Positions 25,877 to 64,000 of a stretch of DNA of 64,000 nucleotides are shown in pieces. Each line of letters starts with the position of its first letter. Position 1 is the first letter of the stretch. A program made the position numbers and the translations under genes. The notes under the pieces are model-generated. The model was given only the letters and a program-made list of their open reading frames with translations. It ran no database searches and was not told the DNA's origin. The DNA is from Octopus vulgaris (lineage: Eukaryota): contig OX597828.1 of NCBI GenBank assembly GCA_951406725.2, positions 69,874,001 to 69,938,000 of the forward strand, given 5' to 3'.

Positions 25877-25982
25877 GAAAAACATAGAATTTAATTAAAT
25901 TTGAAGGACACATTAGTTTGATTTTACCCAATATATATATATATATATATACAAAACGATCAAACGTATACAAAACGATCAA

Positions 25983-27413
25983 ACAATAATAATTAAACAA
26001 GCAGATAAAGGTGGTGCAATTGTTATTATGGATACCGAATACTATAAGGATTTGGTTGAAGACCAACTGAAGGATACAACCTTCTATTGTGAAATACCCG
26101 CAAATATAGACCACCACATCATGAAAAAGATCAACAACCTGATCTCAACACACCACAACTCACTTACGGATAATGAAAAAGACTACATCACCAATTTCGA
26201 ACCAAAACCCAGCAACTTCTACGGCTTACCAAAAATACACAAATCAAAAAATATTCAACAGGCAGTAAAAGAACAAGAAAGTGAGTACATAAAATTATTA
26301 CATCCAAAAGACCTAAAACTTAGACCTATTATAGCTGGTCCAGCATGCCCTACACACCGTCTAAGCAATTTTATTGACATTGTTTTGAAACCACTATGTA
26401 CTTACATACTAAGTTTCATCAGGGATGACATCGACTTCCTGTCCCATCTTCCCAAAACAACAGAAACAAATTCAGTTTTACTAAGTTTTGATGTGGTAAG
26501 CCTCTACACCAATATTCCACACGATTTAGGAATAAAGGCGATTAAATACTGGTTAGAAAAACATAGAGAAGTGATTCCCAGCAGATTCACAGTGCCATTT
26601 ATATTAGACACAGTCAAACTTATTCTAGAAAATAACACATTCTTCTTCAATGGAAAGAATTACATCCAAATTAGAGGCACGGCGATGGGAACGAGGTTTG
26701 CTCCCGTTTACGCCAACTCTGTAATGGGATACTTAGAACAACAACTCTACCAAGAGGTGGAGGTAAACTATGGCACTGGATTTAGAAAGTATATTGAAAA
26801 GGCATGGAAGAGATACCTAGACGACTGCTTCATAATCTGGACAGAATCTCTAAATACTCTGGAAGAGTTCAATATCCTCCTGAACAACCTACACCCATCT
26901 CTCCAATTTACAAAGGAGATGAGCAGTACCAAATTACCATTCCTAGATATAATGGTAATTAAAAAAGACACCACCATCACCACAGATATATACTATAAAC
27001 ACACAGACACACATCAATACCTAAATTTTAAGTCGTGCCATCCACCACATACAAAACGTAACATCCCATACTGCCTAGCCAGAAGAATTTGTACCATTGT
27101 AGAAGATGCAAATATCAGGAACAAACGCCTAATAGAACTAAGAGAATTTTTGCTCAAACAAAAATACCCATCTCTACTTATAGAAAATGGCATACAGCGG
27201 GCTATAAAAATACCCATACAACAACTTAGGACAACCCAAGGAAGAAGAAAACAAGAACAAGTCATACCATTCATAGTGACACACAACCCATGTCACCAGA
27301 ATATCTTCAACATTGCCAAAGCAAACCTACCAATCATTGCCCAAAGTAATGAATTAAAAGACATAATCACGGATCGAGCTATGTGCTTAGTAAAAGACAG
27401 CCTAAAAACTTGA
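25983..27413 (+). pseudogene. Penelope-like element reverse transcriptase (5'-truncated)
   Basis: Motifs IIIKQADKGGAIVIMD (in frame upstream of ATG 26028), FYGLPKIHK, LRPIIAG, SFDVVSLYTNIP, GTAMGTRFAP, RYLDDCF, YYKHTDTHQYLNFKSCHP. Frameshift near 27380. Confidence 0.95.
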
Positions 27414-27859
27414 AAACATTACTAACAAAGGCAAAATTTGACCTTAGCAACAAAGACCAAATATTCACGGTATCTAAATGCAATGATAGCCGATGTGGCA
27501 CATGCCAATTCATACATACCGGCCAATATATAAACACAAAAACCGGGAAAATATTCACAAACGCGAATATGAACTGCAAAAGCAGAAATTTAATTTACTG
27601 CATCAAATGCCCAAATTGTGAAGAAATATATGTAGGTCAGACGGGAAACGCACTATTAGAACGCTCACGTGTACACCGGCAACAGATTAGAGACCCAGAG
27701 GTCCGTCAGATACCTTTGAGTAACCACCTAGCGACATGTGGCCGGAAAATGTATATAATATTTCCGTTCTATAAATTACACAGCCCAAGTGAAATCGAGA
27801 GGAGAATCAGAGAAAATAATTTTATTGATAAATTCGAACCCAAGCTAAATAAGCAATAA
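27383..27859 (+). pseudogene. Penelope-like element GIY-YIG endonuclease with Cys-rich linker (Neptune-type); frameshifted continuation of the RT ORF
   Basis: KCNDSRCGTC linker, then NLIYCIKCPNCEEIYVGQTG, RSRVHRQQI, HLATC and E...I..F.P.LN terminus. Confidence 0.93.
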
Positions 27860-28305: not shown

Positions 28306-28340
28306 AAAAATTGTGAAGCATGACTGTCAACACTACTACA

Positions 28341-28385
28341 TGAACCCGAAGATTGCAGAATTCAATGCATGAAAGTACTAGTTCA
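28341..28385 (+). ncRNA. Minimal type I hammerhead ribozyme of the PLE pseudo-LTR (U4C variant)
   Basis: tgaac-CCGAAGA-t tgca gaattcaa tgca t-GAAA-gtac-TA-gttca. Its position downstream of GIY-YIG is the expected one for PLEs. Confidence 0.8.
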
Positions 28386-28547
28386 ATCAGAATGAACATT
28401 TAACATTCTACTATTTCATTTTATTTTATTCAATTATAATATATTATCTTATAATATATCATTATAAGATTGTAAATAAAACGTGAAAATCAGACAAGGT
28501 TGGAATTCCTTTTATTAATATATTCTTCTATACACAATCACACACAC

Positions 28548-40359: not shown

Positions 40360-40543
40360 TCATTTCTTTTGCTTGTTTCGGTCATTTGACTGCGGCCATG
40401 CTGGAGCACCACCTTTAGTCGTGCAAATCGACACCAGGACTTATTCTTTGTAAGCCAAGTACTTATTTTATTGGTCTCTTTAAGCCAAACCGCTAAGTTA
40501 CAGGGACGTAAACACCTCAATGTCGGATGTCAAGCGATGGTGG

Positions 40544-40609
<66 letters not shown>

Positions 40610-40746
40610 CGACGAGCTTCTTTCAGTTTCCGTCTACCAAATCCACTCACAGGTCTTTAATTGGCCCGAGGTAATAGAAGAAGACACTTGCCCAAGGTGC
40701 CACGCGAAACCATGTAGTTGGGGGGAAAGCTTCTTACCACATAGCC
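40360..40746 (-). mobile_element. SINE family K
   Basis: Matches 18445-18847. Confidence 0.8.
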
Positions 40747-40981: not shown

Positions 40982-41293
40982 TTGTAAGTGAGCATGCGAT
41001 CGTGTGCATGTGTGTAGAAGTGCGTGTGTATGCAAGTGACAGTATGTTTGTGCGCATGTGTTAGTGTTTGTACCTTCGCCAATAAAAAAAAAGTACCATA
41101 CTTAAAATTCCGGGTATCATTTATTCGTTTTAACTCTAGAAGGTGGTGCTCCAGCATGGTCTCAGTCCAATGACTGAAACAAGCAAAAGAATAAAAAAAA
41201 TGTACATATATGTGTTTGCTTCTGTTGCAAAATCAGCGACTGTACATCGCTTGAAATTGTAAATATTGCAAGCAGACGCGAGCTACTGCTATC

Positions 41294-41373
41294 TCTAGCA
41301 GACGAGGTGTCCAGTGCTGAAGAGAGGCAGAAATAGCTCGAAACCAGGCCGGTCTACTGGTCCCGTCGCTAGA
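41294..41373 (+). ncRNA. Canonical full-length type I hammerhead ribozyme
   Basis: tctagc-a-gacg-aggtgt-ccagtg-CTGAAGA-gag gcagaaatag ctc-GAAA-cc aggcc gg-TC-tactgg-tcc-cgtc-gctaga. All core nucleotides are present, with a GUC site and an extended stem I carrying an internal loop. Confidence 0.85.
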
Positions 41374-41577
41374 AGGTGGTAGGGGTTCCCTCCCCTGCTC
41401 GCAATACCTCGGATGCAGCTGTGCATCGTTAACCAGCTGGAGGGGATGTCCTCTTGGGGGTTAAAAAATCGCAGTAAAGTCCGTTGGGGTTGAAGAGGCT
41501 ACGAACATTACTTGTTAGTACAACTACTGCGTTGATCTCTTAGAGACATTTTAGAACTAGCATTTTGCTCGTTGCAT

Positions 41578-41720
<143 letters not shown>

Positions 41721-49974: not shown

Positions 49975-50640
49975 TGAATCCTCTTCGCCATTTTGTTTTC
50001 CTCTGGTGGTGCCTATCTTTTTATTATCTTCTGGAAGCAAGACAATGTCATTAGCAAAGTCCAGGTCTTTCAGTCAAGTTTGTAGTTTTCATGATATTCC
50101 TCCATCGGGTATGTCTGCTATTTTCTTTGGGACGAAATCTACAGCTAGTAAAAACAATAGTGGCAACAGACTGCAGAGTTGTCTCACTCCTCTAATGATA
50201 TCGAAGAAGACTGTTTCCCCTGTTTCTGTTTGGACACAACATCGCGAATTTGAGTAAAATTCTTTAAAGATATTGACAAAGGGTTAAAGGATATGATAGT
50301 GCAAAGCGATTCTCCACAAGGACCCCCTGTGGACACTTTCAAGTGCCTTTGTAAAGTCAATAAAAGTTAGCTTCAGTAGTCTTTGATACTCAATACACTG
50401 TTCAATAATATTTCTGAGTAGAGATTTACTCAGTGCAAAATGGATTGCTGCGAAATTCAGCTTGGGGCCTCACGAAATGCAGCTTCTTTCAGCCTGCTTA
50501 GATGCACTTTGCAGAAAACTTTACCTGGCACTCATAGCAGTATGCTACCCGACCAGTTATTGCAGTTGGATAGGTCTCACTTCTTCGTCAGTTTCATAAT
50601 GATTCCTTCTTGCCAATTCTGTGGCACCACGATGTTCCCA
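49975..50640 (-). pseudogene. RTE-clade LINE reverse transcriptase relic
   Basis: Minus strand LRNIIEQCIEYQRLLKLTFIDFTKALESVHRGSLW, GVRQLCSLLPLLF and LKDLDFANDIVLL. Confidence 0.8.
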
Positions 50641-50659
50641 CCGCCTTCGAACTTTTCTA

Positions 50660-51150
50660 CTGTGACCTCAATATACAAATCAACAACAACAGGCAAAGCG
50701 CCGAGGCTGTTGTTGGACCATTTGCATCGGCAGAGGGAACAAATGACTATGACGATGGAAGCCTACTACTTTTTCTGTTGTATGAACGTCCTCAGCATCG
50801 GAAACACAACCATAAAAACGTTCAGAAGAAAACATGGAGATCGGTAAACGGAGTCTCCCAAAACGAGATTGACTCTATATGTATCAGTCAGCGCTGGAGA
50901 TCATCATTAAGTGATGCCAGGGCACACAGAGGTACAGACATACGATCAGACCATCAACTTCTGAATGCTAGAATAAGACCGAGATTTAAAAGACTATCAA
51001 AACAGGAGAAGAGACAGCCCTATACAATGGAGAAGTTGAATAACCCCGAAACGTCAGGGCAATATCAAATATGGAGGGACAGATTCCAACAAATCTAAGA
51101 AGCAGAACTCGATCTGGAGGAACATTGGAATACCTTCACAGAAACTGTGA
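50660..51150 (+). pseudogene. RTE-clade LINE APE-endonuclease C-terminal relic (inverted relative to the adjacent RT)
   Basis: KKTWRSVNGVSQNEIDSICISQRWRSSLSDARAHRGTDIRSDHQLL (TW..NEIDY..SDH motif). Confidence 0.8.
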
Positions 51151-60671: not shown

Positions 60672-61736
60672 CGAGGGGCGTTCAATAAGTAATGCCCCTG
60701 ACCCACTTGCAGTTGTTTGATCTAGCTAAAATTTTGCATGTGCACTTATTTATACCTCTATAGATTAAGTGGCGAATTACAGCTCCCAGATCTGGTCGCC
60801 CCCTTCTGTCGTTGATGAGACGTCTGTCCGTCAAGTTGAGGCTGCCATTTTGGAAGGTCAACGCATAACTATTCGCCAAATAGCCCATAAGGTCAAGATT
60901 AGTACCGGGTCTGTGGAAACTATCATTCATGACCATTTGCATATGCAAAAGGTGTCTGCCAGATGGATTTCCAGGTTGCTCACACCTTTCCAGAAGCAAG
61001 AACGCGTTGAGTGCTCGAGGATGAATTTGGAGATGTGCCAAGAAGATGAGTCAAAATTTTTCAAAAGACTGATCACACAGGATAAAACCTGGGTCCATCA
61101 CTATGATCCATAGACCAAAGCCCAGTCAATGCAGTGAAAGCACCGTGACTCACCTCCTCCAAAGAAGGCAAGAGTGCAGTCCTCCGCTGACAAGGTTATG
61201 CTCACAGTCTTCTGGGACCAGGACGGAGTAGTGATGACAGATTTCCTGGCAAAGGGTACCACAATTACAGGAGCCTATTATGCTTCACTTTTGAGGAAAT
61301 TAAGAGTAGCTATCAAAATCAAGAGGCGGGGCAAGATCAGCAAAGGCATCCTCCTCCAGCAGGACAACGCTCCGGTCCACAACTCGCGTGTCGCCAGATC
61401 AGAAGCACAGGCGTGCGGCTATGAACTCATCCCCCCATCCCCCCTACTCTCCTGACCTTGCACCCTCTGATTTTCACCTCTTCCCAGCCATGAAGTTGAT
61501 TTTGAAAGGAAAGCGTTTCCCAGATGATGCAGCCTTGATTTCTGAAGTCACGTCGTGGTTGGAGGACCAAGCTGGGGTCTTCTACAAAAACGGTCTCCAG
61601 AGCTGTATCAAACGATAGGAGAAATGCATAACTCTGAGTAGTTCCTATGTAAGAAAAGACTAATAACTGTGCCAAGTGTCGTTGCTCTACTGCTATGGGA
61701 AGTGGGTCAGGGGCATTACTTATTGAACGCCCCTCG
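60672..61736 (+). mobile_element. Mariner (DD34D, irritans-like) element with both TIRs, internal 5' deletion and pseudogenised transposase
   Basis: Perfect TIR cgaggggcgttcaataagtaatgcccctgacccactt with TA duplication; ARWISRLL, TQDKTWVHHYDP, QDNAPVH and HPPYSPDLAPSDFHLF; stops and frameshifts. Confidence 0.95.
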
Positions 61737-62754: not shown

Positions 62755-64000
62755 TTAGGTTGTCAAGAAAGTTCTTGTGGAATTTTAAATTTTCGTTTTA
62801 AATTATGTATTTTCAACTTAATTTTCGTTAAATTACTTTGACTTTATATATCATTTTAAAGCCCGTTTTTCGCTCTATTTAATCGTGCTACTCTTTTTCT
62901 TTTTGAATATTTAGGCCATTTTTTCCGGAACATTGAATACAACATGGACAAAAAACAAATTTGCGCAATTCTCTTATTCCAGTTCAAGCTAGCCCGAAAA
63001 GCTGTTGAAAGAGCTCGCGATATCAACGATGTGTTTGGCCCAAGAACCACTAATGAACGTACAGCACAATGGTGGTTCAAAAAATTTCGTAGCGGTGATG
63101 AGAGTCTTGAAGATGATAAGCGTAGTGGTCGGCCATCGGATGTTGACAACGATCAACTGAGAGCCTTAGTGGAAGCCAATCCACGCACAACTGTTCGAGA
63201 GCTTGCTTCTGAATTAGACGTAACGTACACAACAATTTCCAAGCACTTGAAAGGGATTGGAAAAACAAAAATACTTGAGAAATGGGTGCCGCACAAATTG
63301 AAGGACAACCAAAAAAATAAAAATAAAAATAAAAAAGCGCCGTTTTGAAGTGTCGTCTTCCCTTCTTTTAAGCAACAGGAACGACCCGTTTCTCAACCGG
63401 ATTGTGACTTGCGATGAAAAGTGGATTTTTTACGACAACCGGCTCAGTGGTTGGACGCCGACGAAGCTCCCTCCACGGCACTCCCCGAAGACAAAGTTGC
63501 ACCAAAAGAAAGTCATGGTGATTGTTTGGTCGTCTGCGGCCGGTCTCATCCATCACAGCTTTTTGGATCCAGGTGAAACCATTACGGCGGAGAAGTACAG
63601 TCAGTAAATGGATGAAATGCATAAAAAACTCCGACAACAACAGCCAGCATTGGTCAATAGAAAAGGTCCAATTCTTCTCTACGACAACACTCGGCCACAC
63701 GTTGCACAACTGACCCTGCAGAAGTTGAACGAATTGGGCTACGAAACTCTGCCTCATCCACCATATTCACCAGACCTCTCGCCTACCGATTACCACTTTT
63801 CCAGCATCTCGACAACTTCTTGCGTGAGAAATGCTTCAAAAAACCAAGATGATGCCATACACGCCTTCAATAACTTCATCGCCACCAAAACGCAGGATTT
63901 TTATGCTACTGGCATAAATAAACTTGTTTCGAGTTGGCAAAAGTATGTTGATTCTGATAGTGTTTATTTCGATTAATAAAGTTTTTTGTTTGAGCCGAGA
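62755..64000 (+). mobile_element. Mariner (cecropia/Hsmar1-like) element; transposase pseudogene 62944-63976; right end beyond the window
   Basis: TA-ttaggttgtcaagaaagt end; MDKKQI..., WFKKFRSGDESLED, WVPHKL, IVTCDEKWIFYDN, DNTRPH and HPPYSPDLSPTDYH; frameshifts and stops. Confidence 0.93.

Follow-up and report, generated by a model that had tools for sequence, protein, structure and literature searches.

Introduction

Metazoan non-LTR retrozymes are non-coding repeats with units of 150–450 bp, a GC content below 50% and a type I hammerhead ribozyme, which occur as monomers or short tandems; in mussels the unit is 350–390 bp (PMC7229834). Their expression as circular RNA and their cleavage have been shown (PMC7229834). 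Penelope-like elements (PLEs) have been proposed as the mobilising partner, and a circular template was proposed in the Discussion of the same paper (Cervera and de la Pena, 2020; PMC7229834). A recent study of PLE-derived retrozymes describes monomer derivatives scattered over chromosomes and derives the link to PLEs from their joint occurrence and from pLTR homology across 35 species, among which the invertebrates are three insects and one anthozoan (Li, Clavereau and Pollet, bioRxiv 10.64898/2026.07.22.740005). According to that study an active retrozyme has two consecutive complete hammerheads, and in Xenopus one of nine predicted retrozyme dimers was cleaved.

PLE insertions are recognised by 5′ truncation, partial tandems, inverted pieces that are themselves 5′-truncated, a tail confined to one end and targets of the (TA)n type (PMC8557442). 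PLE hammerheads have a palindromic helix III, and a core covariation between U3-A8 and C3-G8 has been described in them (PMC4209133). Newt satellite 2 is a hammerhead repeat with an internal snRNA-type RNA polymerase II promoter (Coats, Zhang and Epstein, 1994, cited in PMC2220036). Among LINEs, the Tx1 clade has target-specific members, including Tx1 in Tx1D, Keno in U2, and Tx1-Mar (PMC4494074).

Here we describe a hammerhead-bearing repeat in a 64,000-nucleotide stretch of Octopus vulgaris DNA, the whole of which is called the window. The locus is a mutated copy from a ~357-nt non-coding hammerhead family, probably one of non-LTR retrozymes with their own snRNA-type promoter, which Penelope-like enzymes are likely to have copied. 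The family bears on two open points about animal retrozymes. On the enzyme that moves them, its insertion ends suggest Penelope-like elements; on their transcription, there is a U1/U2-like motif inside the unit. The literature search found nothing on hammerhead repeats in octopus-like genomes, although the family may be present in supplements or repeat databases.

The repeat unit and its dispersal

The family alignment gives a unit of 357 model columns, the end of which joins the start at a fixed junction in oriented copies. For this reason the window copy is placed at 41215–41576 on the forward strand, which comprises one unit with a terminal redundancy of 13–15 nt. Its 5′ end, 41215–41229, corresponds to the last bases of a previous unit plus the head-to-tail junction, as seen by comparison with tandem junctions in two other loci (L013 and L008), and this sequence recurs imperfectly at 41564–41576. 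The preliminary description had placed the hammerhead in a GC-rich island of about 290 bp at 41220–41510. That interval is indeed 51% GC, but the ends were drawn too short, as the element continues beyond 41510; over its full length it has 48.8% GC compared to 38.4% for the window. The absence of an ORF was borne out, the longest ATG-started frame in the element being at most 43 amino acids. The copy differs by 6.2% from the family majority and has a 12-nt deletion near 41488. It is flanked by a (TACA)n/(CA)n/(TA)n microsatellite at 41577–41716, the likely insertion target. There is only one copy of the unit in the window, where a repeat finder reported microsatellites only.

A search of the 2.8-Gb assembly showed a dispersed family, with at least 73 matches in the 40 scored of 1419 candidates, 66–93% identical with the query itself excluded. 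A 26-mer of the unit occurs exactly 22 times in the genome and an 18-mer 131 times, compared to none for the controls, and an exact 50-mer was found once genome-wide, at the query's own locus. The 18-mer was held by 2 of the 22 26-mer loci, and the 26-mer by none of 29 18-mer loci. From this small overlap the family can be put, very roughly, at the order of a thousand (10^3) pieces. Among 53 long pieces the median divergence from the majority was 10.1% and the best identity between separate loci was 89.9%; judged by its divergence, the family is old. It differs from the metazoan retrozymes in being old and mostly dispersed and in having inverted pieces (PMC7229834).

Insertion marks were scored in 51 loci picked by exact words. 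A head-to-tail junction is present in 18, an inverted piece in 18 and a single piece in 20, and these classes overlap. The longest tandem has about 2.5 units, and no longer array of this family was seen among the 51 loci. The search for tandem copies suggested in the preliminary description thus gave a positive answer, and its view of the locus as a monomer of a retrozyme-like repeat agrees with a dispersed family that has a ~357-nt unit and head-to-tail junctions. The unit is non-coding, within 150–450 bp, below 50% GC and provided with one type I hammerhead, and its family is multicopy with head-to-tail tandem units; these are the sequence-level features of retrozymes, and the length is close to that of the mussel unit. 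With one hammerhead at the locus, the window copy appears to be a monomer derivative and, by the two-hammerhead definition of Li et al., not an active retrozyme (bioRxiv 10.64898/2026.07.22.740005).

Pieces of other family copies were present in contigs of 4 of 24 sequencing runs, which were guessed to be RNA. In contigs of run X1 all of the depth at 41316 and 41350 reads the family letter, not that of the window. Four other runs (organisms A, C, D and E) contain both the family and the head-to-tail junction, and near-identical pieces of the window locus were found in runs X12, X13 and X14. For the metazoan retrozymes expression and cleavage are experimental findings (PMC7229834); for the present family both are predictions.

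The hammerhead in the window copy

The hammerhead as a whole lies at 41311–41360 on the forward strand, as seen in the sequence, a descriptor search, folds and the family alignment. The perfect core reported in the preliminary description was found as CUGAAGA at 41317–41323, GAAA at 41340–41343 and GUC at 41352–41354, with cleavage predicted after C41354. Proximal stem I pairs 41311–41316 with 41355–41360 in 6 bp, of which the first is G.U. The two hairpin stems are also in place: stem II at 41324–41339, with the loop AGAAAUA, and stem III at 41343–41345/41351–41353, which has 3 bp counting A15.1-U16.1 and the loop AGGCC. The conserved core, the three helices, an open-ended helix I and an NUH triplet at the cut site together define a type I hammerhead.

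The long, interrupted stem I of the earlier account was found, together with its internal loop, but it runs beyond the 16 bp then given. Its distal extension has a 5′ arm at 41286–41307 that pairs with 41362–41382, with 88% of cells paired and covariation no higher than in shuffles. The internal loop, read earlier as aggtgt/tcc, refolds better as UGU (41308–41310) opposite U with two extra G-C pairs. A tertiary contact of this loop 1 with loop 2 is predicted and has some indirect support in the sequence conservation described below. Two further hairpins follow at 41381–41396 and 41412–41427 in the sequence and the predicted fold, and their arms are those noted before, agggg/cccct (41381–85/41392–96) and gatgca/tgcatc (41412–17/41422–27).

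The type I descriptor has one match in the 64-kb window, and in its strict form it matched none of 200 shuffled windows (local first-order Markov shuffles). Rfam gave no match at the gathering score; Hammerhead_HH9, aligned at 41300–41377, reached 20.8 bits (E 0.018) where its gathering score is 52. The predicted fold of a 111-nt region, at −44 kcal/mol (z −2.3), contains the long stem I and lacks the three-way junction. Relative to the minimum-energy fold, the hammerhead fold is higher by 3.4–3.5 kcal/mol in three short constructs and by 7.3–8.4 kcal/mol in two longer ones, and the hammerhead helices are not favoured in predicted ensembles. This folding gap is weak evidence, because L002, a natural copy whose stems are intact, likewise has no hammerhead fold in its predicted ensemble.

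Compared to the family majority, the window copy is changed at 41316, 41338, 41350 and 41356. Three of these changes preserve pairing; the one at 41350 costs the fourth pair of stem III, which on the alignment is weakened in this copy. The words "canonical, probably active" in the preliminary description are therefore too strong for the window copy. As a ribozyme the window's hammerhead is unremarkable, a decayed representative of a class already known.

Conservation of the ribozyme and sister families

Divergence was counted in 121 pieces from loci chosen without the hammerhead word, with the window copy excluded. In non-CpG core columns 37 of 661 cells differ (5.6%) compared to 2188 of 19546 (11.2%) elsewhere. 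In the loop 1 UGU the figure is 10 of 192 and in loop 2 it is 22 of 465, together 32 of 657 (4.9%), compared to 10.4% in base-matched columns. When base-matched columns were resampled, the core had P 0.0016 and the loops had P 0.00075, values that treat columns as independent and copies, which are related, as if they were not. Of the 61 pieces that span the motif, 29 keep the hammerhead core and 24 keep core and stems. The preliminary description held that homologs lacking core and stem conservation would speak against it; here the core diverges half as fast as the rest. We read the pattern as that of source elements in which the ribozyme was kept while the rest of the unit varied, and not as selection by the host. 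Within the family 89% of stem cells are paired, and covariation does not exceed that of shuffles, with five pairs of two-sided change where 5.8 were expected. Stem III is a near-palindrome of 4 bp.

Three sister families share their downstream part with the family of the window; their paired stems are different and their stem III is palindromic. In family B (loci L250–L269) the core reads CUGAUGA, stem II has an A.G opposition at its base, stem III is palindromic and the cut triplet is AUA. Its units are 350-bp tandems, with a trimer in L266 (L266:650–1750). Family C was seen as one copy (L080). Family D (L230–L249, e.g. L245:500–1800) is young, with 2734 candidates and top copies 95–98% identical. 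In all 24 motifs found in family D, U3-A8 replaces C3-G8, the same variant that is known from PLE hammerheads, with which the present hammerheads also share the palindromic helix III (PMC4209133). Unlike the minimal hammerheads of PLEs, those of the window's family are of the full canonical type in helix I and in the nucleotides of loop 1 and loop 2.

A candidate snRNA-type promoter

A 14-nt motif was learned de novo from four distinct U1/U2 upstream types, and its matrix rests on those four. The sample consisted of 15 of 48 U2, 15 of 42 U1 and 12 of 48 U6 matches in the genome. The motif stands at −57 to −61 in U1/U2 genes, and the matrix picks U6 upstream regions poorly (best score 9.5). When whole units of the repeat were scanned on both strands, the top site fell at −57 to −62 from a LINE target, described in the next section, in 17 of 29 copies. 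It was at −49 in two copies that both have a 10-nt deletion, it was the same motif of the next unit in another two, and in eight the motif scored best elsewhere.

In the window copy this PSE-like motif is at 41232–41245 on the forward strand, 59 nt before 41291, with a score of 15.3; of 127,972 window positions two score as high, itself included. An AT-rich element at 41257–41267 on the same strand, recognised by eye about 25–35 nt before 41291, may be a second promoter element. It is a TA run in the family and has two substitutions in the window copy. The spacing of the motif, about 57–61 nt upstream of a +1 that is itself taken from the LINE insertion site, is that of the U1/U2 genes. Spacing and LINE target together lead to a predicted +1 at A41291 and a 5′ cleavage product of 64 nt, and a U1/U2-type promoter inside the unit is likely on these grounds. 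The PSE-like columns are no better conserved than average, as 51 of 519 cells differ (9.8%). Family B also has the motif at −59, where it is the best within the upstream 100 nt at four of seven sites; over the whole unit the −59 site is not the top match in the sister families. Compared to newt satellite 2, the promoter is predicted from motif and position only and the repeat is dispersed rather than a satellite (PMC2220036). The parts of the metazoan retrozyme report cited here mention neither an internal snRNA promoter nor targeting by a LINE (PMC7229834).

A LINE specific for the predicted start site

In other copies a Tx1-like LINE is inserted at the position of 41289–41305 on the forward strand, as seen in LINE-bearing loci; the site is empty in the window. 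The 3′ end of the LINE abuts model position 64–65 in 5 of the 51 loci, of which L035, L037, L040 and L043 are among the 22 26-mer loci and L227 belongs to the 18-mer set. Most family copies are without the LINE. It has two ORFs, a zinc-knuckle ORF1 and an ORF2 with endonuclease, RT and zf-RVT domains, and it is called Tx1-like from this architecture, the clade being placed without a tree. It sits inside the unit between two copies of the target, the duplication being about 14 nt long in L054 and 20 nt long in L087. The preliminary description had offered, as a second possibility, that the hammerhead is the self-cleaving 5′ end of a LINE, upstream of its ORFs. This reading is rejected, because the LINE is inserted at a fixed site of the unit, which it splits, and duplicates its target.

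A search with the 3′ UTR of the LINE gave 42 matches, from which 30 loci, representing 29 places, were taken. Four of these places (L128, L137, L138 and L153) were already known from unit-side or earlier searches. The LINE runs into the target site of family A or B at 27 of the 29, at one of them by way of a second LINE piece; of the other two places one does not continue into the site and one has no LINE end. Related LINE 3′ ends stand directly at +1 of 2 of 15 U2 genes (L163 and L170).

The LINE resembles the described Tx1-clade elements in having two ORFs, one site in a multicopy target and long duplications, and differs from those in Tx1D or U2 in that its target is a hammerhead repeat at the predicted +1, with related ends at the +1 of U2 (PMC4494074). 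Nothing was found in the literature on Tx1 targeting of hammerhead repeats, on which supplements may bear. The LINE marks the predicted start site independently and offers a testable model of how LINEs are directed to snRNA-type promoters.

Another repeat, one without a hammerhead, contains a young Tx1-like relative in 5277-bp arrays arranged head to tail (L088–L094, at G000:C5:29.18–29.21 Mb, C9:59.22–59.25 Mb and C20). Copies of this LINE are up to 99.9% identical, the ORF2 frame in L090 has 1148 amino acids, and the array units are separated by a duplicated target of ~16 nt. The host repeat has a 3′ end with a hairpin followed by CTAG, and this end looks Helitron-like.

Insertion anatomy and a proposed link to Penelope-like elements

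The outward 3′ ends of family copies are not spread evenly, as 51 of 69 fall in two clusters about 50 nt apart. The outer cluster, with 30 ends, is at model 340–357, and the inner, with 21, at model 290–312. On the forward strand of the window copy the inner zone corresponds to 41503–41525, and 41526–41570 is the tail, which in many insertions is present at one end only. By our reading of the end table, 11 of the 18 loci with inverted pieces combine an outer with an inner end. By eye, many 3′ ends abut repeats of the (TACA)n/(CA)n/(TA)n type. The 33 outward 5′ ends are scattered, with seven at model 60–69 and two near the cut site (model 129). Family D has two 3′ ends as well, about 60 nt apart.

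The family thus displays 5′ truncation, partial tandems, inverted 5′ pieces, a one-ended tail and (TA)n targets, all of which are among the marks of PLE insertions (PMC8557442). It is unlike PLEs in having no ORF and in a difference between tails of about 45–60 nt compared to their 30–40. Copies cross the promoter, the start and the cut site unbroken, and one locus (L210) passes the cleavage site three times. This, together with the few 5′ ends near the cut site, is as expected from a circular or read-through template; the unbroken passage fits a circular template, but also read-through RNA that is cut inefficiently.

PLEs are abundant in the genome, with 6136 GIY-YIG candidates, several of them with open frames of 781 amino acids. 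A search for an autonomous partner found no tail homology to the unit in 30 of the 148 listed GIY-YIG matches or in the window's own PLE. The one match among the 30 loci is a sister-family copy and a PLE placed tail to tail, with a (TA)n tract between them. The window, the family loci and the same 30 of 148 listed matches contained no ORF with RT and GIY-YIG domains joined to the repeat and no pLTR homology. Since the 30 GIY-YIG tails share no sequence with the unit, the Penelope-like partner is a proposed one. Compared to the elements of Li et al., in which a pLTR homolog supports the link to PLEs, the link here comes from insertion anatomy (bioRxiv 10.64898/2026.07.22.740005). The statement in the preliminary description that there is no link to PLE-type motifs holds for sequence homology, in the window PLE and the 30 GIY-YIG tails, but does not hold for the Penelope-like anatomy of the insertions and the near-palindromic stem III.

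The PLE of the window itself is at 25917–27856 on the forward strand. It has RT (RVT_1) and GIY-YIG frames with a frameshift and a cysteine-rich linker between them. Its 3′ region contains, near 28340–28390, a decayed minimal hammerhead-like motif with a palindromic stem III.

Origin of the locus

The unit could instead be the leftover terminal repeat, or pseudo-LTR, of an old autonomous PLE, scattered by 5′ truncation and never an independent circle. All of the insertion marks are PLE marks (PMC8557442), a PLE-derived origin of retrozymes has been argued (bioRxiv 10.64898/2026.07.22.740005), and Penelope-like fragments lie at most 1.5 kb from 3 of 46 loci, a raw count that is not used as support for the link to PLEs. 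However, these three loci have no common arrangement in which PLE pieces adjoin the 5′ end of the unit. No locus has an ORF upstream of the unit, the 30 GIY-YIG tails show no homology to it, and the fixed joining of unit end to unit start, repeated for up to 2.5 units, is foreign to this account, which we consider unlikely. An origin as one end of a LINE, or mobilisation by the adjoining Tx1-like LINE, would explain why the LINE 3′ end is directly upstream of the hammerhead arm in five loci. This reading is nonetheless scarcely credible, as the LINE splits the unit and duplicates its target, most copies have no LINE, and the unit has no A-rich tail and a tandem, inverted and two-ended structure unlike that of these LINE insertions.

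A further possibility is that the window copy is functional, an intronic or intergenic ribozyme that the host has kept in the manner of HH9 and HH10 of amniotes. At 6.2% this copy is tied closest to the family majority among the 53 pieces, its core is intact, three of the four changes within its hammerhead preserve pairing, and contigs identical over 41286–41378 are present in X12 and X14, runs with different organism codes. The closeness to the majority is, however, partly built in, because the window copy was the query. Twenty-four of 61 pieces are equally intact, stem III is weakened, and no host gene was identified around the copy. Host retention is accordingly very improbable. The best reading of the locus is a decayed, dead-end monomer of what appears, from the sequence-level features of the family, to be a non-LTR retrozyme.

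The retrozyme reading suggests the following course of events. Transcription would begin at a tandem source locus with a U1/U2-type promoter in each unit, so that the RNA starts about 64 nt upstream of the cut site. Read-through over two units would be cut at both hammerheads, releasing a monomer that includes the promoter of the next unit, and this would be circularised by a host ligase. To judge from the insertion marks, a Penelope-like enzyme may then prime at a fixed region of the RNA and a target of the (TA)n type, copying anything between a fraction of a turn and about 2.5 turns, and frequently a piece in inverted orientation. The copies decay, and in many of them a Tx1-like LINE is inserted at the predicted start nucleotide. 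The window copy could at most cut a local transcript and could not regenerate a circle, since it has a single hammerhead.

A broader and more tentative proposal, which we would not hold to be the probable one, joins two parts: hammerhead repeats as RNA circles that bring their own promoter and are pasted in by Penelope enzymes, and a lineage of Tx1 LINEs specialised on the +1 of snRNA-type promoters, its targets possibly being U2 genes together with three or more families of hammerhead repeats. If it were true, a promoter would be captured at the 5′ end of each LINE insertion, and where the target is a repeat, the hammerhead, about 64 nt behind the LINE 3′ end, would trim the LINE transcript.

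Other features of the window

Mariner-type transposase fragments (HTH_48, DDE_3) are present on the forward strand at 60769–61110, 62860–63345 and 63608–63973. Translated frames at 50422–51095 suggest, by eye, a decayed LINE endonuclease/RT fragment. Pieces of very abundant short repeats, presumably SINE-like, lie at 40380–40740 and 41100–41200, and contig depth at 41150–41197 is thousands-fold above that of the hammerhead unit.
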